DNA from: a virus
Lineage: Duplodnaviria > Caudoviricetes
Direction: 5' to 3' (one strand)
Virus record (IMG/VR): IMGVR_UViG_3300026549_000030
Span: 64,001-128,000 of that record
DNA: 64,000 bases
The notes beneath the pieces were generated by a model. It was not told the origin of the DNA. It did no database searches and saw only the letters and a list, made by a program, of their open reading frames with translations. Every line of letters starts with the position of its first letter. Position 1 is the stretch's first letter. Positions 1-22,070 of this stretch are shown in pieces. The translations under genes and the position numbers were made by a program.

Positions 1-159
1 AACAGCCGTCTTTGCATTGTCAAACGCATTACGTACTGCGTTTCCTGCACGCTTGAACCAACTGACTTCATCGATTCCCTCGGCTAAAAGGGCGCTCTTT
101 ATGGTTTTGTTTATAACGTTCCTAAGTTGTTCTTCTGTTAATGGTACTCTTTTTTCCAT
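1..159 (-). CDS. Partial ORF (runs off window) with L-T-E-x-Q-L leader; probable head-associated protein
   Basis: Manual translation from ATG at 159 gives MEKRVPLTEEQLRNVIKQTIKSALLAEGIDEVSWFK..., open to the window edge. A TATTTAT motif lies upstream (179-185). Confidence 0.65.
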   Translation of the reverse strand, partial: MEKRVPLTEEQLRNVINKTIKSALLAEGIDEVSWFKRAGNAVRNAFDNAKTAV

Positions 160-242
160 AATATATTATTTTTTTTTAATAAATATCTGTTTAATGGCAA
201 AACGTAGGCACACATAAAAGAAAATCGCAGATTGCTCTGCGA

Positions 243-1368: not shown

Positions 1369-2431
1369 TTTCTTCATGTTTTTTATACCCATGAACCTTG
1401 AATAAATGACACTCTTTACAATATGTTATTAAGTTGCCCATATCATTCATTCTCGGATCATTAGTCATTATCTTAAAAAGTTTCTCCTCATCTTTCTGTA
1501 CATCAAATGTACTATTTTCTGCTAAAATTTCATTAAATATCTCTTTAAATGGCTTAATATGATGAACATGTAATTGTTTTCTTGAACCGCACATTTGGCA
1601 CCTTTTTCCATCCCGTTCAATCACGTCTTTTACTTGGTAGCATCTGAAATACTCTCTTAGCCTCATATATAATCCACTCCTTCCTCCTTTCCAATTAGGA
1701 TGCTTTTCACCTGAAAATAAGCCGATTTTTGCTTCTGATGAAGTTCTTTTTTGTATTCCTAACTCCCTCAATACTCTATCAACAAAATTCGCAGAAACAT
1801 TAAATTGAACGGCAATATCCTTTTTTGATAAATGTCTTTCTATATATAAATCATATACTACCTGAAAGTCTTTTAGTTCTTCTGGGAATTGTTTATTGTT
1901 CTTAACAAAATGTGATTCTGATAATTTCCTTCTGTCAATGCCACAATGCGACAAGTGCTTTATAACCGTTCTATGTGTTACGCCAATTATCTTCGCTATA
2001 TCAGTTGTTGATTTCCCATTCTTGTATAAATAAACTATCTTCTCATCATTGGAATCGTCATAAAAATCTCGTGACATCATTGATACTGTTCTCTTAAGCC
2101 CAAGTTCTTTAACTTCCCTATCTACCGCCTTCGGAGAAACGTTCAGTATCTTTGCAATCTCATTTATTGGGGAGCCATCGTTAAAAAGAGATTTCATTTT
2201 TTCTACGTCCCCAACTTTTTGCTTGAACGGAGATGTTATATTGTACTCTTTCCCTTTAATGCTACCTTTTTCTCTTAATTGAACGCCCTCACGCCTAAGT
2301 ATTCTATTTATCGTTGAGAGCGAACAACCAACTATTTCGCCAATCTCTTTGGTTGTTTTTAGTTCATTAAGATATAAATGCTTAATTGTTTCAATATCTA
2401 AGTTTTTCATATTAATGCGTTCATACATCAA
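1361..2431 (-). CDS. Free-standing HNH homing endonuclease with tandem HTH repeats
   Basis: About four HTH-like repeats (e.g. 'TTKEIGEIVGCSLSTINRIL'), 'GEKHPNWKGG', and HNH core 'CQMCG...HVHHIKPF...NLITYCKECH'. Inserted between nrdD and nrdG. Confidence 0.85.
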   Translation of the reverse strand: MMYERINMKNLDIETIKHLYLNELKTTKEIGEIVGCSLSTINRILRREGVQLREKGSIKGKEYNITSPFKQKVGDVEKMKSLFNDGSPINEIAKILNVSPKAVDREVKELGLKRTVSMMSRDFYDDSNDEKIVYLYKNGKSTTDIAKIIGVTHRTVIKHLSHCGIDRRKLSESHFVKNNKQFPEELKDFQVVYDLYIERHLSKKDIAVQFNVSANFVDRVLRELGIQKRTSSEAKIGLFSGEKHPNWKGGRSGLYMRLREYFRCYQVKDVIERDGKRCQMCGSRKQLHVHHIKPFKEIFNEILAENSTFDVQKDEEKLFKIMTNDPRMNDMGNLITYCKECHLFKVHGYKKHEEND

Positions 2432-2468
2432 TAAATATATGAACTACCAAAAAAGAATAAACAAAAAG

Positions 2469-2500
2469 AAAAAAGATAGTATCAAATACTATCTTTTTTT
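2469..2500 (-). terminator. Inverted repeat overlapping the nrdD stop codon
   Basis: aaaaaagatagtat-caa-atactatctttttt, followed by a U-rich tract on the minus strand. Confidence 0.5.
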
Positions 2501-4638
2501 GTATATACTCTTGTTTTTTGCTCTATTCTTCTACCTTCACTCCAATTTTTAATTTTTGTAAGATACCCAATTACTCTGTCATAATAATCAATATGTTCGC
2601 TTCCGCATTTTGGGCATACTGTGAACGGCTGTTTTGCAATATACCCACAATCCCTACATTCTGCGTTTGGAACATTGTATGTATGATAACTACACCCAAC
2701 TTCTGCAGCATATTGAAGCAATTTCCAATACTGTTCTTTGCTTAAATGGGAATCTAAGTTTATATGAGCCGCTGCGCCTCCATCAAGATTATCAGTGGCG
2801 AAATTTGTTCCCATCATATATAGCTTATCGAGTACTGACGTATTCTCATTTGGCTTATATATGTAACTAGCATATAGGTTGGTATCATCCGGCACCCAGT
2901 ATCCGTCTTCTTTATCCCAGTTATAAAATTTCACTGCCACAGATTCGGCTGGTACCTGTTCTGTATTGAACGTTGTCTTCTTTGTCTTATGCTTTTCGTT
3001 TTCTTCTTTGACCGTTCCAAAAATAAACCGGCAGAACTCACTATATGCTTTATTTTTGCTGCACTTTAGACCAAGAAATTCTGCTGCCTGATTGAGTCCA
3101 TTCAATCCAATTGTCAGATATTGCTTGTTTAAATCAATAAATCCTGCACTGTAAACAGGAAGAAGCCCCGCGTCATACATATCCCACAAATATTCGTTGT
3201 ATGCCGTATGATACTTGTAAACACGATTCAATATCTTAACAATATGCGAACGATAGTTTGTCTTATTTTCTTCTGTGAAGTTTTTAAAACATGGGCGCTC
3301 CCCAAATTCTTTTTTACAGAAATCTTGGGTTATTCTGTTAAGATTAAGCGTAATAACAGACTTTGAGCCTGTCTCTACACCAATATTTCCATTCGTGAAA
3401 CTAAACTCTTTTGTCTGAACTTTATTTCTCAACCTGCAACAAGAACTAAGTGAATCTGCCGTTTCAGAAATATAAATAAAGAAAGAATGCCCTCTTTCTA
3501 ACTCCTCTGCAACAAATCGCGCATTTTCCTCATCAACAAATTTTCCATCCTTATATATCAAGGCAAATGACTCAACTGGGAACGTGAGAACTTTTCTCAG
3601 CCTCTCCGCATTAAACCACTTCATAAATTCTTTCTGAAGCCAATTGAGACTTTCCCATTTTGGCTGTGTTCCGTCAGGGAAATAAAATTCACCAAACATT
3701 GCGTCAAAGAATGGTTTGTCAAAATACGAAAAGTTAAGAAATGGAGACTGCGAATTACGACTCGAAGCCGGACTGTTGACTGAATATATCACACCCTGAA
3801 AATGCTGTTCTATTTCACTACGAATAGTCTTCTTCTTTTTGCTTCTTCCGCAAGAAATTACATCTTCCGGATAAAGATAATAGTCGTCGCCCCATTCTTT
3901 TCTCGCAAACCAGTCGAAAAATAATAAAAATTCTGGCGTGGCAACCGCACCTGCATACTGAGATGCTATGGCAAAAAGTAAATTATTAAAAGAACCGCAA
4001 TATCCCGCCAGATTTTGAGGCGCTTCTGAAGTTCCACCAATAACCTTTGTTCCATTTAAGATAAATGGATACATAGATATGGAAACGCAGTATGGCGCAA
4101 TTGGGCCAGCAAAAGAAGATTCATCATGTTTATATAAGATATGCCCATTAAGATCCTTGGTGTAATTTCTGCTGTTAAAAGTAGGATACAATTTTTGAAG
4201 CTTATGCTCTATCATTGCGCGGCTAATCATTATATTTGTATCTTTGTGGATTTCAGCATTCAATAAACTTACATTCTTTCCGGTTGCATTTGAATTATCG
4301 TCGATTGTTGCATCTGCATTGTTTTGAGAAGCTTTATATCTCTCAATGAACTCTTCCTTGCTTAGCACAAATTGGCATATAGCTTCACGTTTTGCCCAAT
4401 TAAGAATGTATGCTTTCGCCGCATTGAAATTTCTCTTTGCTAGCTCTTCTTCTACAAACCTTCTTATTTCTTGACTACTTGTTCCTTCTACAACATGCTC
4501 TTCAACTGCATTTACCGTTTCTGCAATTAGCGGATTGTCTCTCTTTTCACCAGACATTACATATGCCTCACATATTCCTTTCTTTACCTTATCCCTGCTG
4601 AACTCCTCATAAGTCCCGTCACTTTTTCTTACTTCCAT
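2482..4638 (-). CDS. nrdD: Class III anaerobic ribonucleoside-triphosphate reductase with N-terminal ATP cone
   Basis: ATP cone 'MEVRKSDG..EEFSRDKVKKGI', 'SSCCRL', zinc site 'CRDCG...CPKCGS', glycyl-radical motif 'RVIGYL'. Confidence 0.95.
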   Translation of the reverse strand: MEVRKSDGTYEEFSRDKVKKGICEAYVMSGEKRDNPLIAETVNAVEEHVVEGTSSQEIRRFVEEELAKRNFNAAKAYILNWAKREAICQFVLSKEEFIERYKASQNNADATIDDNSNATGKNVSLLNAEIHKDTNIMISRAMIEHKLQKLYPTFNSRNYTKDLNGHILYKHDESSFAGPIAPYCVSISMYPFILNGTKVIGGTSEAPQNLAGYCGSFNNLLFAIASQYAGAVATPEFLLFFDWFARKEWGDDYYLYPEDVISCGRSKKKKTIRSEIEQHFQGVIYSVNSPASSRNSQSPFLNFSYFDKPFFDAMFGEFYFPDGTQPKWESLNWLQKEFMKWFNAERLRKVLTFPVESFALIYKDGKFVDEENARFVAEELERGHSFFIYISETADSLSSCCRLRNKVQTKEFSFTNGNIGVETGSKSVITLNLNRITQDFCKKEFGERPCFKNFTEENKTNYRSHIVKILNRVYKYHTAYNEYLWDMYDAGLLPVYSAGFIDLNKQYLTIGLNGLNQAAEFLGLKCSKNKAYSEFCRFIFGTVKEENEKHKTKKTTFNTEQVPAESVAVKFYNWDKEDGYWVPDDTNLYASYIYKPNENTSVLDKLYMMGTNFATDNLDGGAAAHINLDSHLSKEQYWKLLQYAAEVGCSYHTYNVPNAECRDCGYIAKQPFTVCPKCGSEHIDYYDRVIGYLTKIKNWSEGRRIEQKTRVYTKKDSI

Positions 4639-4775
4639 TCTTAATTTTTAAACTAATTTTTGTTATTATTCGAGGGTAATCATAAATAGAATTTTTCCTC
4701 CTATTAAGCCCGAAAAATTAACCAAAAAAGTCGGAAAAATTTCACTTTTTTCCGACGTTATTGTTAGTCAAATAG

Positions 4776-6227
4776 TTACTCATTGTGGAGATTGAAACTT
4801 CGTCGAGCGTCACGAATCATCTCCTGCTGAATCTGTTTTTCCTTCTCCGTTGCGAACTCATTATATTCCAGAATGTCGTCAAATTCAACTACATCGCTGC
4901 AATCAATCGTACATGTTCCGTTGTTGAAATAAACACCTTCAAGGTTGATAGTGTCTCGCCCACCTCGGTTCTTCAAGAGTGAAATTGTTGCACGATATTC
5001 CTTCTTCTGCTCAGGCGTACGGCTGATAGAAATGATAACGTGGGAAATCTGTCCCTTCTTGATTGAACCTCCCATTTTATCGGTGGTTACAATCTCGCTC
5101 ATAATACTATCCCTGTTACCCTGACAAGGAATCCAAATTGCGATGTCAAGTTCCGCTGCCAGGTTCTCGAGTTTTCTCATAGTGCGTCCCTCTCTCTCGG
5201 TAACGTCAAGTTTGCCCGTTCCCGGCTCGGGTGCAATACACTCAAAGTAGTCGATTACAACAAAATCAGGCTTGAACCCTTCATTCGTAACTTTGAGAAT
5301 GTAATTCTTGATATCGGCAACCGTCTTTTCTCCTGAAAGGAATCTGACAATCCTGATATTGGAGTTGATAAGTTCCTTGTCCTTAGAATTTGCAAGGATT
5401 TGTCGTACCTTATTGGTGGTTTCTTCATCCTTATTCAAGTCCGCAGTTTCAACCTGACTGATTTTCGAGAAATATTTCCTATGAATATCCCTATGGGTGT
5501 CCTCGAAAATAATCTGCAATCCCTTGAATCCTTCATAATTGTTAGCTTCACAGAGATATGTAGCGGCATTCGCCGCATAGCAGGTAGTCATTGAAGTCTT
5601 ACCAAACCCCGTAGGACCAATAATGAGCCCAAGTTTACCCTTTTCAAGCCCTCCGCCAAGAACAGTGTCAAGTTTGCTTACGCCAGTAGGTATATGAACC
5701 GTGTGTTCTTCTGACAAGTCTTCCTCAACTGACTCGAAAGGCGTTGTCATACTGTCCTCGTGACGACGTACGGAAAAAATGTCTGACATTTCCTGTGAAT
5801 ACTTCGAAACCTCTTCCATTGTAGCGCCTGCTACTACGGACTGAACCATTTCGTTAGCACAACGGATTATCTCCTGCTGCTTGAAGAATTCCAAGCCGAG
5901 TTCCTCAATCTGCCCGCGCCCTTCGCAGGTAGTTTTCCTGAGTTTCTCGATTGTCTCGTTATAATACTGTAAGTCGTCATCATTGTGCACAAGTTTCTCC
6001 CTTACCTTGATGTTAATCATCTCATAGGAAGGGACAGAACCTGTGGCGTCATAGTAATCCTTCATAACACCCACGATTCCCCTCAGACAGGGCTCTGTGA
6101 AAGCGTTCTGCTCTACGACGGAATATATATCCTTAAAGAATTTTCCGTCCTCTACGAAGGAACTTACAAGCCTGTACTGATAATCGGCACCGAGAAATCC
6201 TAATGTTCTTTTCTCAATCTTTGCCAT
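4776..6227 (-). CDS. Replicative DnaB/gp41-like SF4 helicase
   Basis: Walker A 'GPTGFGKT', 'IIFED', 'VVIDYFECI', 'QGNR', 'KNRGG'. Confidence 0.9.
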   Translation of the reverse strand: MAKIEKRTLGFLGADYQYRLVSSFVEDGKFFKDIYSVVEQNAFTEPCLRGIVGVMKDYYDATGSVPSYEMINIKVREKLVHNDDDLQYYNETIEKLRKTTCEGRGQIEELGLEFFKQQEIIRCANEMVQSVVAGATMEEVSKYSQEMSDIFSVRRHEDSMTTPFESVEEDLSEEHTVHIPTGVSKLDTVLGGGLEKGKLGLIIGPTGFGKTSMTTCYAANAATYLCEANNYEGFKGLQIIFEDTHRDIHRKYFSKISQVETADLNKDEETTNKVRQILANSKDKELINSNIRIVRFLSGEKTVADIKNYILKVTNEGFKPDFVVIDYFECIAPEPGTGKLDVTEREGRTMRKLENLAAELDIAIWIPCQGNRDSIMSEIVTTDKMGGSIKKGQISHVIISISRTPEQKKEYRATISLLKNRGGRDTINLEGVYFNNGTCTIDCSDVVEFDDILEYNEFATEKEKQIQQEMIRDARRSFNLHNE

Positions 6228-6239
6228 GATTACAGTATA

Positions 6240-7049
6240 TTATTGGTTACGGAAATAAGCGTTTGTTTTAGCCCGATACTCGGCTTCTACTTTCTTGATG
6301 TACTTTTCCTCAGTATTCGCAATGTCAAGGTCATACTTGCGTCCGCCATAATCAAGGTACGTGGTGTACTCAGAAACGTCGTCGTAGCTGCACGCGGTGC
6401 TGAGGGCATTGAGTATCTTTGGAATAATACTCGTCATAGACTTCATGTACTTCTTAATGAGGAAAGACTCAATAGGTGCCTTAGTTACACCGTCAACCTC
6501 ATACTTGTTCTTAGAATTGGACAAGTCGATATTGCTTCTTACGAAGCGGGGACATATATTGGAAATGTCCCAAGAGACGGAACGAACCTCGTTCTTATTC
6601 TCCAAGAAGGAGAACTTAAGGATACACGGCTGCTCGGGAGCGGAACCGTCGAAATCGCTCGTATCGAACTTGTTGGCCCAAGGGAGCATTTCATTTCCGT
6701 TCCAATTGAAGATTTCCTTCGTTTCGCGGAGCACTGCAAAGCACGGAACCTCGAGTTTGAACCTATCTTCCTTGTGGTTCGCCACCCACGTGTCCATTTC
6801 TTCGCGGTTTTGGAACACCTGAGGAGCCATATACCAATTGAATATATTGGACTTCTCAATGAGATCCTTATTAATAATATCTACACACTTCTCAACAGCC
6901 TCTGTAAGCTGAAGAGAGACAAGTGAACGCTCCCTGAATCCGCCGATTCTGAAATAACGCTGGCAAACGATGTTCTCATTCACCGTAAGAACGAACTCAA
7001 AACGTTCAACCCTGATTTGATTGTCTTCTAAACTTTTGTTCTCTACCAT
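6240..7049 (-). CDS. Hypothetical protein in replication operon
   Basis: 269-aa ORF co-oriented with and abutting the helicase; TAnnTTTG element upstream (7086-7093). Confidence 0.7.
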   Translation of the reverse strand: MVENKSLEDNQIRVERFEFVLTVNENIVCQRYFRIGGFRERSLVSLQLTEAVEKCVDIINKDLIEKSNIFNWYMAPQVFQNREEMDTWVANHKEDRFKLEVPCFAVLRETKEIFNWNGNEMLPWANKFDTSDFDGSAPEQPCILKFSFLENKNEVRSVSWDISNICPRFVRSNIDLSNSKNKYEVDGVTKAPIESFLIKKYMKSMTSIIPKILNALSTACSYDDVSEYTTYLDYGGRKYDLDIANTEEKYIKKVEAEYRAKTNAYFRNQ

Positions 7050-8456: not shown

Positions 8457-10121
8457 TTAAATTTTCATTTTATAAACTTTGGTTCCGCAGTCATATATTC
8501 TATATAGTCCATTCCGAAAACAAAACTCATGTTCTGTCTCCTCCTTATTACAGCCATATTTTGAAACAAGAATGTCTTTCCTGTAACAGAAACGGTTTTT
8601 CCTAATTCTTCCTTCTACATAGAAATAATTTGGTGGAGATACATGGTCAAGGGTAAATCCAAGCCTTTCGTATAAATTTCCATTTGACCATCTTCTGTCA
8701 GCGTATGTGATTATTTCTTTCGGGTTTACCTGTTCAATAAAGTGTCTTAAAAGTTTTGACGCCCCGCCTATTACCATATAATTTTCTTCGTTACAAAATC
8801 TTAGTAATTCATAAGCGCCTTCTTTACTTTTATATCCAAGATTTCTCCTAAGCGTGGAAAATGTCATTACACTTATTAACTTTCCTTTATACATAAGTCC
8901 GTAATTGAATTTTCCACCAACATATCCTTGAATGTGATTTCTTTCAATGAATTCTTTTGCCTCTTTTTTCGAAAGTTCTGCAATTTGGCATTTTCTTGCA
9001 TAAACCTTATTTTCAGTTATCCCTAGTATGTTTCTTATTCTTGACTTGCAGATTTCTTTCTTAAACATCCACTCATCCTCGAAAATGTGGATAAGATGTA
9101 TACCGCGTTTCTCACACTCTTCCGTTTTCCATAGGTGATAGTTCTTATCTCTTTTTCTCTCGTCATGCCAATGCAATCCGTCAAATTCTATTGCAACTCT
9201 TTTAGATGGAATATAAACATCGAGTTCATGCGTCAATAAAACATCCCTATCTTTCTTGATAATTTTATAGTTCGGCAGAAGTTCGGATATAAAAGCATAA
9301 ATTTCCTCTTCTCCATTGGAGATAATGTATCCGCACTTCTGACAACCATTTCCACTTAAATGATAAGTCGGTAATTGTTCAAAATCCCCATGCTTCCTGC
9401 AGGTTATCGTAATGGGCGTAAAACAATCTTTATAAACAACCTTTTCGTATGAATATAAATCTCCGTGTATTGCCCTCGCATCTTTAATGAACCGCTCGGT
9501 GCTCTTCGTTCTCGAGTTCGCTCTCTTAATTTTTCCGCATTCCGGGCATCCTTGCCCTCTTAGATGCTGATGCGGCGTCTGATAAAATTCACCATGTTTC
9601 GGGCAAATAATCTTTACTTTATCCCTTACCGTCTCATAAACTACACCTGAATAGTCATATTTATCTCCGTGAATTTCTCTTGCCTTCTTTATGAATTCTT
9701 CCTTGGGAAGCCTCTGTATCTTTCCGATGTACTCTTCTGCACAAAGTGAACATCCCTTTCCTGCTAAATGTGCATACGGAGCCTGCCAAAATTCTCCGTG
9801 CTTTGGACAAATAATACACACCTTTGTATATGAATCAACATATTCAACTTTTGAATAATCATATCTTTCCTCATGAATCTTTCTTGCTTTTTCAATGAAT
9901 GTCTCTGTGGTGTATTTTTTCTTCTCAGAACGAGATTCTATTCCACATTTAGGGCATCCCTGTCCCTTAAGGTGCTGATGCGGCGATTGAAAAAAAGAAC
10001 CGTGCTTTGGGCAAATTATTTCCATTGGCTCTATGAGTTTCGTATAAACAGACTTTGAATAATCATATTTATTTCCATGCACCTTTCGGGCTCTTTCTAT
10101 TATTTGTTCTAAATTATACAT
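8457..10121 (-). CDS. Hef-like putative homing endonuclease: four zinc-ribbon repeats plus a Vsr/PD-(D/E)xK-like nuclease and a C-terminal domain
   Basis: Four repeats of 'FI.KAR.IHG.KYDYS..VY....IICPKHG.F.Q.P..HL.G.GCPKCG', then 'ELDVYIPSKRVAIEFDGLHWH'. Confidence 0.75.
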   Translation of the reverse strand: MYNLEQIIERARKVHGNKYDYSKSVYTKLIEPMEIICPKHGSFFQSPHQHLKGQGCPKCGIESRSEKKKYTTETFIEKARKIHEERYDYSKVEYVDSYTKVCIICPKHGEFWQAPYAHLAGKGCSLCAEEYIGKIQRLPKEEFIKKAREIHGDKYDYSGVVYETVRDKVKIICPKHGEFYQTPHQHLRGQGCPECGKIKRANSRTKSTERFIKDARAIHGDLYSYEKVVYKDCFTPITITCRKHGDFEQLPTYHLSGNGCQKCGYIISNGEEEIYAFISELLPNYKIIKKDRDVLLTHELDVYIPSKRVAIEFDGLHWHDERKRDKNYHLWKTEECEKRGIHLIHIFEDEWMFKKEICKSRIRNILGITENKVYARKCQIAELSKKEAKEFIERNHIQGYVGGKFNYGLMYKGKLISVMTFSTLRRNLGYKSKEGAYELLRFCNEENYMVIGGASKLLRHFIEQVNPKEIITYADRRWSNGNLYERLGFTLDHVSPPNYFYVEGRIRKNRFCYRKDILVSKYGCNKEETEHEFCFRNGLYRIYDCGTKVYKMKI

Positions 10122-10206: not shown

Positions 10207-10695
10207 TTAGAAACAAAGAATAGCGTAATCTATTACGATTGTGGCTGTTATATCAGCAAGCGCGTCATCAGAATACTGAAGTGTACCGAAGTTTACCGTG
10301 CTAGGCCACGAATTTTTCAATACCCACTTCTGAGCACAAACTCCCGTAGGGTCGAGCATTTCAAGTTCAAGATCCCTCTTGTAGCCTGCCGCATAGCCCT
10401 GACGTCCTGTTACAGACTCTGAGACGAGACGAATCCACTCCATAATTGCCTGAGAAGCGCTCGGGGCGATAGGATCGCGGAATGTCATCTGTATTGTGTC
10501 CCAAGTGTAACGTCCTGCCACCCATGTTGAGGTGTTGAGGAAGTGAATCTCGGTACTGCCCTGTGTAATAGAAGGTCTATTTGCTGACTGAAGCATCCAC
10601 TCTGAAATACCTAAATCGCTAGGGAACCTAACAACCCATCTATTTTTACGCAATGGCTCGAATTGGAGCGGCATTTTGATTAGTAAATCATTCAT
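10207..10695 (-). CDS. Tail tube protein (T4 gp19-like)
   Basis: 'FEPLRKNRW', 'AGRYTWDTIQMTFRDPI', 'YKRDLELEMLDPTG...KWVLKNSWPSTVNFGTLQYS'. 162 aa, with TATTTATA upstream. Confidence 0.88.
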   Translation of the reverse strand: MNDLLIKMPLQFEPLRKNRWVVRFPSDLGISEWMLQSANRPSITQGSTEIHFLNTSTWVAGRYTWDTIQMTFRDPIAPSASQAIMEWIRLVSESVTGRQGYAAGYKRDLELEMLDPTGVCAQKWVLKNSWPSTVNFGTLQYSDDALADITATIVIDYAILCF

Positions 10696-10851: not shown

Positions 10852-13800
10852 TTAGTTGAAAAGATATCTTAATCCGAACTGAACCTGCCAGCACTGTGAG
10901 TTATTCACAACATAGTCATAAGACTGTGAAATGTACTCGCCCGCAGAGTTCTTAGCAATTGAGAACGTAGGCTCTCCTGCTGCGTTAACACCCTCATACT
11001 TCATGAAACGAGTGTTGTTTGAGATATCGCTGTTCTTGTAAACACCCCAATTGGAATTGAAGATATTACCGACATTAAGAACGTCGATTGAGAATTGGAA
11101 GTTATGTTGCTGTTTTCCTGTCTTGAACTTAAAGTTGTGCGCCCAACGGAAGTCGAAGCGATTAACCCAAGGTGAACGAGCGGCATAAGCCTCTGCATAT
11201 TCTCCCTTATGCTTGCTGAGGTAGCTATCCTGAGCAACATAAGCGTCGTATGCTGCTGCATATTCTGTTGCATTGTCCTTCCACTTGATATCTGAACCGT
11301 GAGGATAGATATACATAAGATCGTTGTTGATTCCGTCACCATTCATATCATTGGTATAGCAATATGAGTTTCCATAAGGACTCAAGCCAGTGTAGAAGAG
11401 GCTGAATTCCATAAGGTCAGTCAAACCGCCATATTGGAAAGGAATTGAATAGTTCACAGAAGCGATAAGCTTGTGAGGAATGACGTAACGAGAACGCTGA
11501 ACGTCTGCAAAATTAGGACTGTCAACGGTGATTAAGCCCTGCCAAGTCGAAAGAGGGTCAGAACCGGGAAGTCCGGAAACCTCCTTAGACTCGGTGAAGG
11601 TATAAGCTGCCATAAGTCTCAAATCCTTAACGGGTTCGGCATTGAGGGTAATGTTTCCAATATATCCGTAGCCCTTATTGGTATTAGTGAGATATGGAGC
11701 GTTCTTACCTGCGTTGATATAACCCTTGTCTGCAGGATAGATAAGACGGTTGTCGGCACCAACAAAGCGATTCCATTCACCTGTGTTGTCCTTAATATTG
11801 ATATTGTCAACAACTACTCCGTAAACAGTCTTGTTGAAAATTCCCTCGACAGTAACATTGAACGGGAAACTGACAGGAACTGCCCAATCAAAAGCAAGAG
11901 AAGTCTTCCAAATCTGTGGCATATGGAAATTCTCGTCAACTCCTGACATTGTTGAACCTGCGCTGTGCTTATCATCGGAAATTTCGGTAGGAAGTCCGAG
12001 CTTGCTAACAATATCGCTAACGTTCGTAATCATACCGCCGTCAAAAGCGTGGAGCTTATCGTTCTTAGAAACAAGCTGTCCATTAGCCCACGTTGACTTA
12101 TACTGAACGGAATTCTGAACAAGTCCTGCGTTAGTGGGCATATTGGTAAAGTAAACGAGAGGAAGTCTGCCTTGGAACAAACCAGTGCCACCGCGTACCT
12201 TCAAAGTCTTGTCGCCGTAAACGTCCCATACGAAGCCAACGCGAGGGGAAACCTGAACGCGGTTGTTGGGCCACTTACCTGTATCAATTTTCTTTCCGTC
12301 ACGGAAGTCGTATGCATAAATAGCATTATTTCTTGCGATATCAGCGTTGCTGAAAATCAAGTCGTCAAGACGAATACCATAGGTGAGTTTGAAGAATTCG
12401 CCAAGGTTCCACTCGTCCTGTGCATAAAGTCCAATCTGATTGAAAGTAACCTGAGCATTAGGATTGAGATTACCGTTCCAACCATATGTAACGGCGAAAG
12501 ACTCAGGTGTTCCATTCAGAACGTCCGTAATCGTAGCCTCGTCAGTCCAAGCGTAGCGATAGTATCCTGCGCCGTTACGCATATAAGCGTTATTTGCGAA
12601 CTGATGCTCATAATTTGCACCAACAACAAGCTTGTGATTACCAAGAAGAAGGGTAACATCGTCCTTTACGGTCCAAACCTTGTTATGAACACCATTGTTC
12701 CAAGTAAAGAGCTCGTAACCGAGAGACATATAAGGCTGCCAGCTGCCGGAGGCGTCCTGCTTGATAATATCAACGTGAGGGAATGCGCTCGAATTTGAAC
12801 CACGAATGTCCTCAATGTTTGAATATGTCGCAAGGAACTGATTTGAAACATTATTACTGAATCTCGCATTGTAATCAACAGACCATGAAGACACGTTATT
12901 CTCCATAGAAAACATGTTGTTTGCGAATGCCATTGACTGATTACCAACACGATAAGTACCGTTAAGACGATAGCCAGTATCGGAAGAGTTTCCATTAGGA
13001 GTATTCCAAGCTACGTTCTGTGTCTGATTGTAACGAACTGCAAGGTGATGTCCGGGGGCAATATTCCAATCAATTCTTGCAAGAAGTTTCTTATTGGATT
13101 CGTCGCCCGGGAAACTTGTGTAAGAACCCGTATCATAGCCATATTTTTCCTTCATATATGACTGTACAGCAGCCAAATCTGACGCAAGTGTACGGGAAAC
13201 ATTACCCTTTGCATCTTCACCGCCATTGTTAGCACGGTACGTAATTACCTCACCAGGCTGCTTAGTCTGCTCGTAGTTAACGAAGAAGAAAACCTTATTC
13301 TTCACAATAGGACCACCAAGTGTGAAACCGTAAACAGTTCTCGACTCTGCAGCGCGTGCGCCAAGGTCAACGCCGTTAATCTTGTTGCCACGCGTGTCCT
13401 GATTCTTAAAATAGGTGTAAACGCTACCCTTGAACGTGTTTGTACCTGACTTGGTAATAGCATTGACGCCACCACCGATAAAATTAGTCTGTCTTACGTC
13501 AAATGGTGCAATAACAACCTGAACCTCCTCAATGGCGTCCAATGAAATTGGATTACCGCCGCCCGGAAGTGCATCTGAAAGTCCGAAATTGTTGTTGAAG
13601 TTAGCGCCGTCAACAGTGAAGTTGCTTGAACGTCCGTCACCTCCTGCGAAGCTCATTCCATTCGCATAAGGGGAATACTTTGCAACGTCCTCAATTCCTC
13701 TGTTGATCATCGGAAGACTTGTAATGTCTCTTGCCGTAACGTTGGTGGATGCACCTGTTTTTTCTGAATTAAACTTCGACGTTGAGGCAACTACAATAAC

Positions 13801-14157
13801 CTCGTCAAGTGTCTCGGAGGGCCAAAGAACCGCGTCCTGTGTGTAAGCCTCTCCAAGCTTGAGAGAAACGTCCTGAAATTTTACGGTATTGCAGCCGAGG
13901 AACGAAACTGAGATTTCGTATGGATAGCCCGGGCGAGCACCTTCAATTGTATAACGCCCATCTGAGTTAACGACTGCATGATACTGCGAGCCACTCGGTG
14001 TGTGAACCGCAACTACGACGGCTCCTGTGAGCGCGTCACCATTGTTATCAACGACTTTACCGTTGATACTGGATGTCGTAACCTGCGCATAGGCGCTGAT
14101 TGACACCATCATTGTAATCGCAATAAGCGAAAGTGTTTTAAATAGTTTTTTAATCAT
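10852..14157 (-). CDS. TonB-dependent outer-membrane receptor (Oar-like, with N-terminal carboxypeptidase-regulatory-like domain)
   Basis: Sec signal peptide (…SISAYA|QVTTSS), 'GKVVD…LTGAVVVAVHTPSG', TonB-box-like 'LDEVIVVA', plug motifs 'NFTVDGANFNNNFGL' and 'GGGVNAITKSGTN', barrel motif 'YAQDEW', C-terminal 'QFGLRYLFN'. Confidence 0.92.
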   Translation of the reverse strand: MIKKLFKTLSLIAITMMVSISAYAQVTTSSINGKVVDNNGDALTGAVVVAVHTPSGSQYHAVVNSDGRYTIEGARPGYPYEISVSFLGCNTVKFQDVSLKLGEAYTQDAVLWPSETLDEVIVVASTSKFNSEKTGASTNVTARDITSLPMINRGIEDVAKYSPYANGMSFAGGDGRSSNFTVDGANFNNNFGLSDALPGGGNPISLDAIEEVQVVIAPFDVRQTNFIGGGVNAITKSGTNTFKGSVYTYFKNQDTRGNKINGVDLGARAAESRTVYGFTLGGPIVKNKVFFFVNYEQTKQPGEVITYRANNGGEDAKGNVSRTLASDLAAVQSYMKEKYGYDTGSYTSFPGDESNKKLLARIDWNIAPGHHLAVRYNQTQNVAWNTPNGNSSDTGYRLNGTYRVGNQSMAFANNMFSMENNVSSWSVDYNARFSNNVSNQFLATYSNIEDIRGSNSSAFPHVDIIKQDASGSWQPYMSLGYELFTWNNGVHNKVWTVKDDVTLLLGNHKLVVGANYEHQFANNAYMRNGAGYYRYAWTDEATITDVLNGTPESFAVTYGWNGNLNPNAQVTFNQIGLYAQDEWNLGEFFKLTYGIRLDDLIFSNADIARNNAIYAYDFRDGKKIDTGKWPNNRVQVSPRVGFVWDVYGDKTLKVRGGTGLFQGRLPLVYFTNMPTNAGLVQNSVQYKSTWANGQLVSKNDKLHAFDGGMITNVSDIVSKLGLPTEISDDKHSAGSTMSGVDENFHMPQIWKTSLAFDWAVPVSFPFNVTVEGIFNKTVYGVVVDNINIKDNTGEWNRFVGADNRLIYPADKGYINAGKNAPYLTNTNKGYGYIGNITLNAEPVKDLRLMAAYTFTESKEVSGLPGSDPLSTWQGLITVDSPNFADVQRSRYVIPHKLIASVNYSIPFQYGGLTDLMEFSLFYTGLSPYGNSYCYTNDMNGDGINNDLMYIYPHGSDIKWKDNATEYAAAYDAYVAQDSYLSKHKGEYAEAYAARSPWVNRFDFRWAHNFKFKTGKQQHNFQFSIDVLNVGNIFNSNWGVYKNSDISNNTRFMKYEGVNAAGEPTFSIAKNSAGEYISQSYDYVVNNSQCWQVQFGLRYLFN

Positions 14158-14189
14158 ATTTTTAAAATTGGTTTAAAAAAGTATCGTGT

Positions 14190-14221
14190 CAAATATACGT
14201 ATTGTCCTAATAAAAAGCAAA
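14190..14221 (-). promoter_or_regulatory. Bacteroidota sigma70-type promoter for the TonB-dependent receptor
   Basis: Minus strand TTTG (14221-14218), 20-nt spacer, TATATTTG (14197-14190); matches TTTG-N19-21-TAnnTTTG. Confidence 0.7.
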
Positions 14222-14256
14222 AACCCGAACAGTAAACCTACTATTCGGGAATTTTC

Positions 14257-15408
14257 CTATTCGATTGGAACCACTTCCTGCGAAACCTTGCCAACCTCTG
14301 AGAATGTAATATCACTCTCGGTAATATTCTCATCCATTCCGCTCTTCATAGCAAGAATCTTCGGGAGTTCACTCTTCTTATAATCGTTAATATCGTTCTC
14401 GGTAATAATTCCGTTATGAACGCAACACATTGTACCGCTGTACGTTACGTTATAAGGAGTCGGAAGCTGATTCTTGTAAACAGAAATCTTGGTAACGGTG
14501 CCATACTCGGTTTCATTACCTTTTACAGTTGCTTTAAGTTTCTTGGTACCCTGCGTAGCAACACCACCAACATGGATACCAAGACGGCAACCGTACTTGA
14601 AAGCCTCACCACCGCTGTTTGCGATTGCGGTTGCGCCACCCATACTATTCTGACTGTCCTTCCAAATCTTGTTAATAGCAATCATACCATTGGTGTACGG
14701 TGTACCAACTTCCTTAGAAGCCGCAATTCTTGTAAAGATAGGCTTAAAGGTTGCGTTGATTGCACCAGCGTCGAACATATTGTTGCCGCTCTTACTTGTG
14801 TAAGATTTCCAAGACTGAATACTTCCGATTGAATCCCAAATGAAAAGAATTGGCATTGGAATATTGCCGTTATGCTGTTCGTCAAGGAATGTATTGATAA
14901 TATAACCAATATCTTCAATAACAGCCACGTCTCGCTTGTTCTTTGTCTTTTCACCCTTGGAATAATCCATATCGCCACAGAATTCGCACATTTTAGTAGG
15001 GGTAAAGAGAACATAATCTCCTTCCCAGTCAACGATTCCATATTCGCCTGTTTCAGGATCGTTTCCGTAAACGGGTTCGATATCCATTCCACAATCCTTT
15101 GCATATTGGAAATCGAAATTTCCCTCTGTCTCGAAAATAACAGGGAGAATACCCTGCTTCATAGCCGCAGCAATCGCGAGGTTCTTAAGCGTTGACTTAC
15201 CTGTGTTCGTCCAACCTCTTACTACACTCGTTCTTCCGAGAGGAAATCCGGGAAGTTTCGTTGCTTCCTGAAACGCCTTGGGCATAATAACCCATTCGAG
15301 TTCCTTATCGGCAACCTTTCCTACCTTTTCTCCGAGGAAATTTGCCTTAAAATCCTTCACGCTGAATGAAGGGACTTCTTTTTTCTTTAATGGTTGTTTA
15401 GCTGCCAT
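14257..15408 (-). CDS. recA: RecA/UvsX-like recombinase
   Basis: Walker A 'GWTNTGKST', 'IFETEGNFD', Walker B 'FIWDSIGS', 'SGGEAFKY', 'KNQL'. Confidence 0.8.
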   Translation of the reverse strand: MAAKQPLKKKEVPSFSVKDFKANFLGEKVGKVADKELEWVIMPKAFQEATKLPGFPLGRTSVVRGWTNTGKSTLKNLAIAAAMKQGILPVIFETEGNFDFQYAKDCGMDIEPVYGNDPETGEYGIVDWEGDYVLFTPTKMCEFCGDMDYSKGEKTKNKRDVAVIEDIGYIINTFLDEQHNGNIPMPILFIWDSIGSIQSWKSYTSKSGNNMFDAGAINATFKPIFTRIAASKEVGTPYTNGMIAINKIWKDSQNSMGGATAIANSGGEAFKYGCRLGIHVGGVATQGTKKLKATVKGNETEYGTVTKISVYKNQLPTPYNVTYSGTMCCVHNGIITENDINDYKKSELPKILAMKSGMDENITESDITFSEVGKVSQEVVPIE

Positions 15409-15458: not shown

Positions 15459-16058
15459 TTAGTCAATAATCTCATCAATGACACCGAGTTCAAGCGCGGT
15501 TTCAGCGTCCATGAACCAATCCTTTTTGCACTTGACTACTTCGTCGAGCATTTCTCTTGTAATTTTTGTTCTGGAAAGGATTATGTCATCTATTTTATCT
15601 CTCAGCCTCTTCCATTCTTCTGTAGATTCTTTTATGTCTTCCAATTTTCCGATTTTGAACCCCGAAATGTCGTGATAGAGATATGTTGAATTTTTGGAGC
15701 CGTACCGTTTTGTCCCTGCCTGCAGTGCGAATATTCCACAAGACATTGCTTTTCCGACTACTTTAATGTTGACAGTATATTTTCTTGTAAGGGACTTGAT
15801 TAAATCATAAATTGCAAGTCCATCATACACGACGCCGCCATAAGTGGAAAGATAAATGTTTATTTCAGGCAGTTTGAAATCAGACGCATATATTCCCGCG
15901 CTTTCTAAAATAGTCTTGTTATTCCTGATAATTTTTTCGTCTCTCTGTTTTATTTCACAGATATCCTTTTCCAATTTTTCAAGCGTACTTTCTTCAATAT
16001 CACCGGTGAAATAAATGTCATGGCTTTCATCGAAAAGACTTTTAATCGTTGTCTCCAT
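15459..16058 (-). CDS. ClpP-like serine protease
   Basis: 'YLSTYGGVVYDGLAIYD', nucleophile 'AMSCG', His in 'YLYHD', 'DWFMDAETALELGVIDEI'. Confidence 0.88.
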   Translation of the reverse strand: METTIKSLFDESHDIYFTGDIEESTLEKLEKDICEIKQRDEKIIRNNKTILESAGIYASDFKLPEINIYLSTYGGVVYDGLAIYDLIKSLTRKYTVNIKVVGKAMSCGIFALQAGTKRYGSKNSTYLYHDISGFKIGKLEDIKESTEEWKRLRDKIDDIILSRTKITREMLDEVVKCKKDWFMDAETALELGVIDEIID

Positions 16059-17910: not shown

Positions 17911-18459
17911 CTATTCAAATTTATACTTGTTCCAATCTATACTATCCTTCTTGTTCCATCCTTCTTGGAGACAAGTTGTTATATATCCAAGGCATTTATA
18001 GTAGAAATCCGTGAATTCTGCCATATCCGTAAAATCATGGTATTGAGGATTGCTCATTTCGCCGAATTTTAGACGGAACGGCAATGATGCGCCGTTCGTT
18101 TGATATGCCAAATCATATGCCGCTTTATAATTAAACTGGTTTTCTGCTGATAGATATACATTGATGCTTTCCCCACTTGCAGAAGTCCATGCGAACCCTG
18201 TCAAAATTTTGTTGTCTGTTTCGCTATTTAAGTATTCAAGTATCATGGCTTCAATCTCATGCAATTCAGGTTTTATTTTGAATGTTTCCTGCATCCATGA
18301 TGCGAACACTTCATCTTCCTCGTATTGTCCTGTTGGGTTTCCTTCGCTATCAAATATCTCTTTCATGATTGGTTGATAGTCCCATTCTACAACATATAGT
18401 TTGTTGTTGTAGTTCGAGGTTTCTTTATAGTCCTCTTTTTTTCCTACGTTCCTAAACAT
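17911..18459 (-). CDS. Putative tail-fibre-associated protein (DUF4376-like)
   Basis: 'ILTGFAW…VYLSAENQFNYKAAYDLA…GW.KKDSIDW' resembles small proteins found next to Bacteroidota phage fibre genes. Its start overlaps the RT stop. Confidence 0.5.
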   Translation of the reverse strand: MFRNVGKKEDYKETSNYNNKLYVVEWDYQPIMKEIFDSEGNPTGQYEEDEVFASWMQETFKIKPELHEIEAMILEYLNSETDNKILTGFAWTSASGESINVYLSAENQFNYKAAYDLAYQTNGASLPFRLKFGEMSNPQYHDFTDMAEFTDFYYKCLGYITTCLQEGWNKKDSIDWNKYKFE

Positions 18460-19663
18460 TGCTTATACATTTATCCTTTAAAACAACTGCCTTTCTGTAG
18501 TTTGGAAGAAAATGAAAATATTCCCTTATTGTTTCTTTTTCGAACGTTTTGTTCATTATTTTCCAACATTTAAACTTTCCAAGATAGCCACAATATGAAT
18601 TGATGGTATTTCTATATCGTTTAATATCTACTTTTGACACATTTCCTTTATAAATATCCAATTCAATTAATTTTATCTTCTTTTTGAAAGATTTTATTGC
18701 TCTGTTCGACGGATATCTTCTATATGGCTTAATACATGCGCCAAGAAATTTGAAATTCTGTGTCAGTTTGAATACATGTGTCTTCTTCATATTTAATTTT
18801 AAACCGAGTTCTTTGCTAAGGAAATCAGATATAATTTTAATAAGCGAATTCAGATATTCTTTGTCAGTATGAAGAATGAACGCATCGTCCACGTATCTTC
18901 CGTAATGCTTGATTTTCAACACGCGTTTTATGTATTGATCCAGTACATTAAGGTAGATGTTACTAAACATTTGGCTCATTAAATCTCCAATTATTAGGCC
19001 GATTCCGTCAGGTGTATAAAACAATGATTTTTCCTTTGGAAGATTATCCCAACGGTGGCGACTGCCAATTATCTTACAATTCTCAAGCGGCTGTCTTGTG
19101 AGAATGGTTTCGAGAAGATAATATATAAGATTGAAATCAATAACATCATCCAATAAGTTTCCGTTTATTGTTCTGTAACGGAATTTTTCAAGTTCGCTTT
19201 TAACAATGTTCAGAAAACGTGAACGGTTGATACTCATGAAATATCCCGATATATCAATCGTCAATCCGTATGCACTGAGAGTATAATTGTTGGTGACCGA
19301 ACGTATATGATGCTCAGCACGTTCTATTCCGAAAAGTGTTCCTTTATATTTACGGCAAGAATATGAATCGTATATGAACGTCCGTTCAAAAATCTGAGAA
19401 ATTTGGTTAAATATGAAATGGCTAACAACTCTGTCCCTAAACGCAGGGGCGAAAATTTCGCGTTTTACTGGCTCTTCAATTATAAAACAAACAAGGGGAG
19501 AAGGTTTGTAAATTCTTTTCAGAAGTTCCTCTCGTAAATCCCATATATTGCTTTCAAGGTTTAATTCAAATTGAAGTTGAGATGGATTGTTCCGTTCGTT
19601 TTTGCGGGCAGCAAGGTATGCTTTCATAAGTGCGTCATATAACGCATCTCTTTCTATTGTCAT
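18452..19663 (-). CDS. DGR reverse transcriptase
   Basis: 'KREIFAPAFRDRVV', 'DSYSCRKYKGT', 'DISGYFMSI', 'GLIIGDLMSQMFSNIYL', 'YGRYVDD', 'FLG'. Confidence 0.96.
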   Translation of the reverse strand: MTIERDALYDALMKAYLAARKNERNNPSQLQFELNLESNIWDLREELLKRIYKPSPLVCFIIEEPVKREIFAPAFRDRVVSHFIFNQISQIFERTFIYDSYSCRKYKGTLFGIERAEHHIRSVTNNYTLSAYGLTIDISGYFMSINRSRFLNIVKSELEKFRYRTINGNLLDDVIDFNLIYYLLETILTRQPLENCKIIGSRHRWDNLPKEKSLFYTPDGIGLIIGDLMSQMFSNIYLNVLDQYIKRVLKIKHYGRYVDDAFILHTDKEYLNSLIKIISDFLSKELGLKLNMKKTHVFKLTQNFKFLGACIKPYRRYPSNRAIKSFKKKIKLIELDIYKGNVSKVDIKRYRNTINSYCGYLGKFKCWKIMNKTFEKETIREYFHFLPNYRKAVVLKDKCISNV

Positions 19664-19694
19664 AACGGTATTGTGTGCAGGTATTAAGTGCTGA

Positions 19695-19880
19695 GGGCGG
19701 GCAACTGGGCGAACCGAGAAGCCGTTTGCACGGTTGTTGTTGTTCTGCGGGTTAACATCTTCTGAATTGAAGTTGAGGTTATACGCGTTGTTCTGCGAGT
19801 TCGAAGACGCGAGCCAATAGTTGCCGTTACTTCCTATGCCGTTTATGCCACCGCTTCCGTTGTTGCGGTTCCCTGCGGCT
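19695..19880 (-). repeat. DGR template repeat (TR)
   Basis: AAC-rich 186-bp copy of the target 3' end. All 12 mismatches to VR are at A on the coding strand. Confidence 0.97.
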
Positions 19881-20061
19881 GTCGGTTTTATGAACAGTCA
19901 CTCACTGAATGTGGAAATGAACAAATATGAGCAAATCCGCAGACTTCATTTTCAACCTAATGAAAACTTCTTAATAACTTGCCAATGGCAAGCGGACTGT
20001 TTGAACTTAATCGCACGCTCCAATAGACGTGACTATATGGATTCAGGCTATGTCCTGCACA

Positions 20062-20406
20062 CTAACCGCTATGTTTCTTATTCCATCCTTTTAATTGTCT
20101 TAATACTGCCTCGGAGTTATCTGATAAACGCGAAAACCCCTTTTCCGTCAGAAGGTGTAATTCATAAAGATTTCTGAATGTTATTTGTATCCGTTCCATT
20201 TTTTCAATGGCTGGCTTAAGGAAATCGGACTTAATTTCCGCATCGTTGGCAAATGCAATGGATGTCATTATCCCTTCAATTGTTTTCATAATAGGAAGCA
20301 CGTGCACATACCTATCATCACGCGGCATTTTACCCGTGTTCGTTTTCAAACTCTCGTAGAGTTTACGCGAAGCATCATATACATTCAGGCAATAGTACTT
20401 TCCCAT
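20062..20406 (-). CDS. avd: DGR accessory variability determinant (Avd-like four-helix bundle)
   Basis: 114 aa, basic and helical: 'LNVYDASRKL', 'MPRDDRY', 'RQLKGW'. Lies between target and TR. Confidence 0.85.
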   Translation of the reverse strand: MGKYYCLNVYDASRKLYESLKTNTGKMPRDDRYVHVLPIMKTIEGIMTSIAFANDAEIKSDFLKPAIEKMERIQITFRNLYELHLLTEKGFSRLSDNSEAVLRQLKGWNKKHSG

Positions 20407-20540
20407 TCTGATATCCTTATTTTCAAGTCATTTATAAACGTAACACAGTCAGAAGGTGAAGAGTTAAGAACGTCAAAACTCTTTACAAGCGAAATTATGT
20501 AATCTTTTTCATTATCTTTCATAAATCAAATGATGGCTAG

Positions 20541-20568
20541 GCCGCCCTCGCCAAGACGCTCGGGCGGC
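20541..20568 (-). promoter_or_regulatory. DGR target-recognition hairpin downstream of VR/IMH
   Basis: GCCGCCC…GGGCGGC inverted repeat 2 nt past the target stop codon. Confidence 0.7.
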
Positions 20569-20570
20569 GA

Positions 20571-22070
20571 TTAAGTCTGGGGGCGGGCAACTGGGCGAAC
20601 CGAGAAGCCGTAGGCACGGCTGTTGTTGTACTGCGGGCTAACACCTTCTGAATTGAAGTAGAGGTAATACGCGTTGTTCTGCGAGCTCGAAGACGCGAGC
20701 CAATAGTTGCCGTTACTTCCTATGCCGTTCATGCCACCGCTTCCGCTGTAGCGGTTCCCTGCGGCTTGGAAAAAGTTCCCATCCCAAGTCCAACCGTTGT
20801 CCCAAGTACCGCCATTGCTTGTTGAAAAACCAAGGAATGCGTTACCGCAGGGAATATTGAATCCTACAGGGCATGGGTCATAAACTGTTTTAACAATATT
20901 CTTATCAGAATTGCCAGTTGAAATCTGCGAAGCGTCCCAATAATTGTAAAAGTCGACAGGCGTGTCTCCGTTTTGCCACCAATTGTAATGTGTGTCTTCA
21001 TATGTGTTGAACACGTTTGGGTTTTGAATTGTTGCAGCAAGAGAGCTTGCAGTTGAAGTGATATTAAAAGAACCAACCGCCGCAGATGCTGAATTACGGA
21101 GCATAGGGTCTTTACGTCCCCACTGATAGTAAGGCGAAGTACCCTTTTTACTATCGGCGGCGTCCTTCACCCATCCTAGGCTAACGTCAAGGAAGTTATA
21201 TGTCTTGCTGTTTGTGTTAGTATGGGCAAACGTTGACAGCTCGAACGGATACGACCATATATGCCAACTCCACATAATCTGCCCGTTACCGTCTTTGATT
21301 GCTATCGTTGCATTTCCGCCAAGAGAAGGAATGGATGACACATGGAATCGTAAATACTTACAAAGTTCCCTATTTGTCAAATAAATGTCGTCTATGATGA
21401 AGTCAGATGTGTCTATGAGGACGGATTGCCCCGATACGGCATCGATACCCGTATCTTCTTCTATAAATGGGATTGTGATTTGTTCATTTAGATAATTGTA
21501 GAATGGGCTTGTATATGTGCCTGTTGCTTGAGTATATGCTGATGCGTTTGTTTCCCCGTTCATAATGGCGCAACCATATACGAGAGGAAATTCGTAATAT
21601 CCTTCATGTGATATAACGTAACAGTTTGCGGTTTCTCGTAACGAAACCGTGCCACCCGTTATATCCAACATGGATAAATCGGTATACGTCGCTGAATCGT
21701 ATGATACAGTAAGACGACGTGTACTGTTTTTCTTTGATATATATGAAACGGTATCTGGCGTATAATATCCACCAACTGTACTAAACGATACTGTATATTG
21801 CTCAAACATGGGTACAATAAACAATAGCGTCGTTCCGTTCCATTCCTTTGATTCTATATTACCATTCACGGTAACGGAAACTATTGCGCCGATAATATCC
21901 TGCGAAACAGGACATGTTAATGTAACATAGAGATTTTCATCGGCCATGCCGATGTTTGTTAGAACCGTTTGCTTCTCTTCCTTTGTAAGCGTTTGCTCGG
22001 ATGCATACGATACAAATTTCGCTTCATTTAACTCGGTTTGAGTAATGTATTTATTTTGATTATCAGCCAT
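20571..22070 (-). CDS. DGR target: putative receptor-binding/adhesin protein with C-terminal CLec-like variable domain
   Basis: Fibre-like 'QTLTKEEKQTVLTNIG', Bacteroidales adhesin motifs 'ANCYVI', 'WSWHIW', 'YYQWGRKDP', 'YDPCPVG', and C-terminal 'GNYWLAS…GFSVRPV' holding the VR. Confidence 0.88.
   Translation of the reverse strand: MADNQNKYITQTELNEAKFVSYASEQTLTKEEKQTVLTNIGMADENLYVTLTCPVSQDIIGAIVSVTVNGNIESKEWNGTTLLFIVPMFEQYTVSFSTVGGYYTPDTVSYISKKNSTRRLTVSYDSATYTDLSMLDITGGTVSLRETANCYVISHEGYYEFPLVYGCAIMNGETNASAYTQATGTYTSPFYNYLNEQITIPFIEEDTGIDAVSGQSVLIDTSDFIIDDIYLTNRELCKYLRFHVSSIPSLGGNATIAIKDGNGQIMWSWHIWSYPFELSTFAHTNTNSKTYNFLDVSLGWVKDAADSKKGTSPYYQWGRKDPMLRNSASAAVGSFNITSTASSLAATIQNPNVFNTYEDTHYNWWQNGDTPVDFYNYWDASQISTGNSDKNIVKTVYDPCPVGFNIPCGNAFLGFSTSNGGTWDNGWTWDGNFFQAAGNRYSGSGGMNGIGSNGNYWLASSSSQNNAYYLYFNSEGVSPQYNNSRAYGFSVRPVARPQT
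20581..20766 (-). repeat. DGR variable repeat (VR)
   Basis: Ungapped alignment to TR at an offset of 886 bp. Confidence 0.97.

Follow-up and report, generated by a model that had tools for sequence, protein, structure and literature searches.

Why would a tailed phage carry a complete transporter for the outer membrane of its host? The question is raised by a stretch of 64,000 nucleotides, here called the window, which comprises bases 64001-128000 of the IMG/VR record IMGVR_UViG_3300026549_000030 (Duplodnaviria; Caudoviricetes). The record is linear, 241,996 bp long and 68% complete according to CheckV, which corresponds to a genome of ~350 kb. The gene in question encodes a TonB-dependent transporter (P0001) and is placed among phage genes (Table 1). 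Taking our results together, the explanation we favor on balance is that it is a host-derived accessory importer carried by ~350-kb rumen jumbo phages that infect Bacteroidales.

From its domains, the protein is predicted to be a TonB-dependent transporter of the Oar-like type, with a carboxypeptidase-regulatory-like domain (PF13620) in front of a large β-barrel (PF25183). Both of these family domains exceed their Pfam cut-offs (OMP_b-brl_4, PF25183: residues 234-1053, 172.4 bits against a cut-off of 30), and a weak match to PF00593 is found besides. In our AlphaFold2 model, the N-terminal domain forms a β-sandwich with a predicted local distance difference test score (pLDDT) of 70-84, and the barrel has, according to DSSP, 22 strands, 10 short periplasmic turns, and 11 long loops. 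The top Foldseek matches are all TonB-dependent transporters, namely FusA (4zgv, E 1.8e-20), YddB, Cir, and FepA, with E values from 1e-20 to 1e-16. Q25, which would become the first residue after signal-peptide cleavage, is invariant in 59 homologues, and so are Y1098 and F1100 in the C-terminus (...LRYLFN), where the aromatic residue is second from last. A TonB-box-like motif, recognized only from its position and pattern, is conserved across the phage and the bacterial copies, and the family profile matches the plug of the colicin I receptor Cir with an E value of 1.4e-6. The transporter does not appear to be SusC-like, because it has no match in PHROGs and none at E ≤ 1 in NCBIfam; in addition, no SusD-like gene, TonB, or ExbB was found anywhere in the 242-kb record.

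The gene also has the signals of a stand-alone transcription unit, as an earlier note on this DNA had claimed. A Bacteroidetes-type promoter with the -33/-7 consensus places its -7 element 33 nt before the ATG, and hairpins with T-runs stand on both sides of the gene. The span given in that note, 10852-14221, holds for the open reading frame (ORF; 10852-14157), but its end at 14221 covers the promoter and is not coding. In the 242-kb record, 45 instances of the full promoter motif (TTTG-N19-21-TAnnTTTG) are present. A -7 motif is likewise present 40-85 nt upstream of the transporter in five other phage copies (L002, L005, L092, L171, and L172), and a strong hairpin with a T-run follows the gene in all eight of the other phage copies examined. 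The neighbors had also been read correctly: The gene lies between a phage recA-like gene and a tail tube gene, with no SusD partner and no other host gene adjoining it.

The transporter recurs in other phages. By protein search, homologues of 74-89% identity were found on contigs of 331-387 kb; overall, the gene is present in at least nine independent phage contigs, in four gene contexts, and the assemblies stem from several independent studies. In a 373-kb contig (L002; 89% identity to P0001), the gene order between RecA and exonuclease is that of the window and the neighbors are 80-97% identical. Further copies of 75-80% identity (L003/L004, L171, L172/L173, and L092; 79% in L003, of 387 kb) also lie between RecA and the exonuclease, with neighbors that are only 30-58% identical. 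In a 331-kb contig (L005; 74%), the transporter is located between the DNA polymerase B region and an SNF2 helicase; in a 156-kb contig (L091; 77%), it comes after four glycosyltransferases and before an NrdG-like gene and a collagen-type tail fiber; and in a 35-kb contig (L174; ~78%), it stands among small ORFs near IMPDH and a nucleoside deoxyribosyltransferase. All four contexts place it amid nucleotide or replication genes.

Composition and substitution patterns suggest that these copies belong to the phages that carry them. The G+C content at third codon positions (GC3) of the window transporter is 0.451, which corresponds to the 56th percentile among the genes of the phage itself (mean 0.437), and ranges over 0.16-0.69 in the other phage copies, whereas bacterial orthologues have 0.72-0.76. 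Since the gene resembles phage genes and not its bacterial orthologues in GC3, it must have resided in phages for a long time. The ratio of nonsynonymous to synonymous substitution rates (dN/dS), a measurement that the earlier note had proposed, is 0.047 against L002 and 0.05-0.14 for the other phage pairs, with dS near saturation; these values indicate strong purifying selection on the phage copies. The moron-like features seen here are an own promoter and terminator, host homologues, recurrence in related phages, and purifying selection.

As to origin, the transporter family is found almost throughout the Bacteroidota and is highly conserved there; even Flavobacteriales copies are still 52-53% identical. 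In our trees, built as quick posterior mean site frequency (PMSF) trees, all phage copies fall within one clade of rumen sequences, and this nesting in a rumen Bacteroidales clade indicates that the transporter is host-derived. The nearest bacterial relatives are chromosomal copies beside metK (P0049, 74%; P0034, 76%; P0055, 66% identity), of which P0049 comes from the nearest named bacterium, the yak-rumen metagenome-assembled genome (MAG) RGIG10132 (contig JAGCUK010000094.1). Whether the phage copies form a clade of their own has a two-sided answer. The best trees nest the metK-linked P0034 group among the phage copies, with a Shimodaira-Hasegawa-like approximate likelihood ratio test (SH-aLRT) support of 96, but a single phage clade costs 23.9 log-likelihood units and is not rejected by the approximately unbiased (AU) test (p = 0.08). 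A single capture followed by spread, several captures, and a return from phage to host are all possible on these trees. The phage itself has a MetK (S-adenosylmethionine synthetase; G000:C1:57712-58878), ~5 kb before the window start and ~16 kb from the transporter. A recent co-capture of the transporter and metK was considered and rejected: The phage MetK reaches only 47-52% identity with every Bacteroidales MetK protein tested.

What the phage copies have kept argues for function. No region of the protein is more conserved than the plug, whose mean identity is 88% among phage copies and 83% among bacterial copies; the corresponding values are 83% and 68% for the strands and 79% and 69% for the loops. 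When phage and bacterial copies were aligned, no residue fixed only in phages was found. Because conservation of the plug, the TonB-box-like motif, and the outer loops is no lower in phages than in bacteria, the protein is probably a working importer that benefits the phage and not a decoy; a decoy, a TonB sponge, or an arms-race surface would give a different conservation pattern. Among the roles that the earlier note had listed, nutrient import fits best, given the low dN/dS, the retained plug and TonB-box-like motif, and loops that diverge no faster than strands, while receptor decoy, superinfection exclusion, and competition for TonB find no support in this comparison. Host RNA polymerase would transcribe the gene from its own promoter; the product would be exported by Sec, inserted into the host outer membrane by the β-barrel assembly machinery (BAM), and energized by the TonB-ExbBD of the host. 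As an ordinary importer, it would keep or raise the uptake of the family's substrate as host gene expression falls.

For the substrate, nucleic-acid fragments (oligonucleotides or nucleotides) would be our first, tentative choice, because in bacteria the family is often found beside secreted nucleases, DUF5689 proteins, and a lipoprotein with a BACON domain and a triple OB fold. A nuclease-related gene lies within a few genes in 41 of the 162 bacterial loci; the gene counts in these nuclease-type loci are 23 for Exo_endo_phos, 15 for Endonuclease_NS, 12 for DdbC-like, 6 for DUF5689, and 3 for 5'-nucleotidase. Ribonucleotide reductase is directly downstream in a further 12 of the 162. After the closest bacterial orthologue come a BACON lipoprotein, a BACON-Endonuclease_NS protein, an Exo_endo_phos_3 protein, and a pair consisting of a DdbCD-like transporter and DUF5689. 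The lipoprotein, of ~510 residues, stands beside family members in Prevotella and other lineages; its predicted structure (mean pLDDT 85) contains a BACON domain and three OB folds, which match those of RPA, HIN (p202/p205), Stn1/Ten1, and tRNA-synthetase anticodon-binding domains with Z of 10-12; for RPA, HIN, and the anticodon-binding domains, the root-mean-square deviation is ~2 Å over 84-93 residues. These domains were resolved by VIA-align, as the whole-model Foldseek search was swamped by Ig-repeat noise. A Muribaculaceae MAG (L184, 5596-12588) has an operon of a BACON-DUF5689-Endonuclease_NS fusion, a paralogous Oar-like transporter 49% identical to that of the phage, and a BACON lipoprotein, which looks like a nucleic-acid uptake locus with a non-DdbC type of transporter. 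This operon adjoins metK and a second family transporter with a 5'-nucleotidase. In the phage, thymidine kinase, the anaerobic ribonucleotide reductase NrdD, and a probable NrdG are encoded nearby on the same strand as the transporter.

Uptake systems of this general kind are known. The ddb loci of B. thetaiotaomicron (ddbABCDEF) have been shown experimentally to deplete and take up extracellular DNA (PMC12478041), and related Riemerella genes are required for natural transformation (PMC8459023). The ddb systems combine a TonB-dependent transporter with surface DNA-binding proteins and secreted nucleases, and bacterial members of the phage transporter's family are located in or beside such loci. 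The two differ in their partners, since the partner of the family is the lipoprotein with BACON and triple OB fold and not DUF5689 alone. Along its entire length, the chromosomal orthologue of RGIG10132 is 74% identical to the phage protein, with which it also shares the three-part architecture and the conserved plug and loops; it is found beside metK and the cluster of BACON lipoprotein, nuclease, and DdbC-DUF5689, with a GC3 of 0.72, whereas the phage copy (GC3 0.45) stands alone among replication genes. If nucleic acids were the substrate, oligonucleotides or nucleotides imported from extracellular DNA and RNA could feed phage nucleotide salvage and replication. A more far-reaching picture, which we consider doubtful as a whole, would be that rumen jumbo phages supply the outer-membrane gate of a second, non-DdbC nucleic-acid uptake system of Bacteroidota, that the infected cell thereby scavenges DNA and RNA for ~350-kb genomes, and that the gene has been repeatedly exchanged with host chromosomes.

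Several observations weigh against an importer of nucleic acids that benefits the phage. A nuclease-related neighbor is absent from about three quarters of the bacterial loci (121 of 162), and the substrate is proposed from gene neighborhood only. When it was compared by BLASTP with the DdbC-like transporter located ahead of DUF5689 in the closest bacterial genome, the phage transporter gave no significant match (E 0.09). The OB-fold lipoprotein, the nuclease of such loci, and DUF5689 were not found in the phage record, and therefore the transporter would act alone or with host partners. As for the protein itself, the intact 1101-residue gene described in the earlier note is borne out in its signal peptide, barrel, and C-terminal aromatic signal, but its plug is weaker: The Pfam Plug score is 18.7 bits, under the cut-off of 23.9, and AlphaFold2 modeled this stretch poorly (pLDDT 25-50). 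Finally, none of 13 IMG/VR relatives, found via the RecA-like protein, has the transporter at the RecA-exonuclease site, and the records of five of them, including two that are 100% complete (351 and 356 kb), have no transporter at all. The transporter is thus accessory and not core in this phage group, and since two complete relatives lack it, any benefit is conditional.

Some of these observations would also suit a working importer of something else, such as a metal complex, vitamin, peptide, or glycan, with the nuclease neighbors coincidental or relevant to a paralogue only. The steadiest neighbor of the transporter in bacteria is metK (19 loci), the loci without a nuclease-related neighbor are the majority, and the best structural matches (FusA, YddB, and Cir) import proteins or siderophores. 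However, the association with nucleases, the OB-fold lipoprotein, or DUF5689 is seen in separate lineages (rumen Bacteroidales, Muribaculaceae, Prevotella, Flavobacteriaceae, and a human-gut group) and includes the closest bacterial orthologue, and nucleotide or replication genes surround the transporter in every phage context. We therefore regard a different substrate as somewhat unlikely.

TonB-dependent transporters commonly serve as phage receptors, and phage-borne outer-membrane proteins that alter receptor display exist, such as the Lc porin of phage PA-2. The host orthologue could accordingly be a receptor of this phage or of its competitors, and the phage copy might alter the cell surface by exclusion, as a decoy on debris or vesicles, or as a self-supplied receptor. 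An autonomous promoter and terminator, as is typical of morons, and the patchy distribution among phage relatives would agree with such a role. Nevertheless, loops of the phage copies are no more diverged than strands, bacteria show the same pattern, no residue is fixed in phages alone, and a decoy would have no need of a conserved plug and TonB-box-like motif. A near-identical extra receptor would also leave the host's own copy in place, and we found no paper that names this transporter family as a phage receptor. Receptor manipulation is improbable in light of these points.

Another idea is that the protein helps to move a phage or host protein out across the outer membrane. Oar of Myxococcus xanthus is needed for secretion of the protease PopC (PMC6434023), and its architecture of carboxypeptidase-regulatory N-domain, plug, and large PF25183-type barrel has its counterpart in the phage transporter, where the plug is a putative one. 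However, M. xanthus belongs to a distant phylum, no candidate cargo gene accompanies the transporter across the four phage contexts, and the bacterial contexts resemble uptake loci; nothing indicates such a role here, and export seems very improbable. An assembly chimera or recent functionless passenger DNA can be dismissed on the evidence of the assemblies, in spite of a regional GC above that of the flanks (0.44-0.45 versus ~0.36-0.40) and a GC skew near zero, since independent assemblies from several studies have the same junctions, the GC3 is typical of the phage, purifying selection is strong, and other phage genes, for example in the sheath region, have the same regional GC; the gene is phage-encoded, as the earlier note had assumed.

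Our preferred explanation, a host-derived accessory importer, can be set beside published cases. The earlier note had considered such genes rare in lytic-type phages, a statement outdated by reports of TonB receptors in huge phages (bioRxiv 10.64898/2026.10.24.761521; PMC9723777). Yuan and Chen described 22-strand TonB-dependent receptors encoded by huge phages, transcription of the TonB receptor of Lak phage cluster HP2985, and, in surveyed Bacteroidota gut phages, mostly 8- and 22-strand barrels close to host homologues (bioRxiv 10.64898/2026.10.24.761521). The present transporter resembles these in being a full-length 22-strand barrel of a huge gut Bacteroidota phage with its closest homologues in the host lineage, and those receptors, too, often have transport or metabolic genes in their vicinity. 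The survey had a structural and global scope, and it does not name the Oar-like family, the link to nucleic-acid loci, the patchy distribution, or selection. A 2021 paper reported a putative SusC TonB-dependent receptor in the marine megaphage Mar_Mega_1 and in LR745206 (PMC9723777). Mar_Mega_1 is likewise a very large phage, and its receptor was read as an auxiliary gene that raises uptake; it was annotated as SusC-like and proposed for carbohydrates, unlike the transporter described here.

Since the general phenomenon of TonB receptors in huge phages has been published, the surprise of our finding is limited. It is nonetheless a well-documented case of a huge phage refitting the host outer membrane with what is probably a working transporter. 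Many rumen phages have conserved this transporter, although phages can do without it, and its sequence has stayed near that of the host protein. If the substrate is indeed nucleic acid, phage replication would be tied to the scavenging of extracellular DNA and RNA in the rumen, and the phage gene would offer a handle on an uncharacterized, highly conserved transporter family of Bacteroidota. This idea is testable and possibly new.

Table 1. Features of the transporter locus and of its surroundings, in window coordinates.
Feature	Position	Strand	Basis or remark
TonB-dependent transporter coding sequence (P0001), stop codon included	10852..14157	-	1101 residues, ORF without internal stop
Signal peptide, residues 1-24, predicted cleavage between AYA and Q	14086..14157	-	Hydrophobic N-terminal stretch, read from translation
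Carboxypeptidase-regulatory-like domain (CarboxypepD_reg), residues 30-111	13825..14070	-	PF13620, 58.2 bits (cut-off 32.3)
TonB-box-like motif DEVIVVAS (residues 118-125) and plug (residues 116-242)	13432..13812	-	Motif by position and pattern only
22-strand β-barrel with 11 extracellular loops, residues 243-1101	10855..13431	-	PF25183, DSSP strands on model, Foldseek
Bacteroidetes-type promoter: -33 TTTG (14221-14218), 20-nt spacer, -7 TATATTTG (14197-14190)	14190..14221	-	Read from sequence
Intrinsic terminator, 26 nt past transporter stop codon	10798..10826	-	12-pair stem and T-run
Terminator of upstream recA-like gene, insulating the receptor gene	14224..14249	-	Hairpin and T-run
UvsX/RecA-like recombinase, upstream neighbor	14257..15408	-	PF00154 and phrog_97
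gp19-like tail tube protein, downstream neighbor	10207..10695	-	phrog_4542, E 3.4e-26
HNH/homing-endonuclease gene	8457-10121		
ClpP-like gene	15459-16058		
Sheath-like gene	41307-44357		
Diversity-generating retroelement (DGR), complete	17911-22070		
DGR reverse transcriptase	18452-19663	-	
DGR small accessory gene	17911-18459		
DGR template repeat (TR)	19691-19880		
DGR variable repeat (VR)	20577-20766		3' end of ORF 20571-22070 (499 residues, no Pfam match)

The flanks of the transporter consist of same-strand phage genes: NrdD, the probable NrdG, a DnaB-like helicase, a 5'-3' exonuclease, an HNH homing endonuclease, and the gp19-like tail tube protein, together with the UvsX/RecA-like recombinase, the ClpP-like protease, thymidine kinase, a gp32-like protein, and the DGR. 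The last of these, placed ~4 kb from the receptor in the earlier note, is real, as 12 of its 13 TR/VR mismatches are at TR adenines; no link between it and the transporter, ~4.3 kb away, was found.

Among 50,697 phage records, tblastn turned up no close homologue and nothing better than a match of 32% identity on a 6-kb fecal contig, and pattern scans of IMG/VR with protein and alignment patterns returned only one odd 6.5-kb contig (L010, IMGVR_UViG_3300029880_000326). Over positions 1-6574, this contig has a homologue of the window's DGR accessory gene (46% identity) and then a family transporter that begins at the equivalent of residue 328 (59% identity); it may be an element inserted into a bacterial gene or a truncated copy. 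L175 and a 310-kb contig carrying P0051 have further homologues (77% and 71% identity) in ambiguous contexts, one near YonG_N, a CCA-adding enzyme, and a sigma factor, the other amid many small ORFs and acetyltransferases, and may be additional phage or mobile-element carriers. In L091 (735-16906), the four glycosyltransferases that flank the transporter together with the NrdG-like gene and a UDP-glucose dehydrogenase belong to family 2, and the tail fiber, of 1174 residues, has collagen repeats and an endosialidase-chaperone domain.

The tail tube gene of the window is isolated among replication genes, ~30 kb from the sheath-like gene and the baseplate genes. L002 is otherwise collinear with the window and lacks the HNH/homing-endonuclease gene and the ClpP-like gene; there, the exonuclease comes directly next to the tail tube gene, and RecA directly next to thymidine kinase. 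In this phage group, the interval between RecA and the exonuclease is a hot spot of gene insertion.

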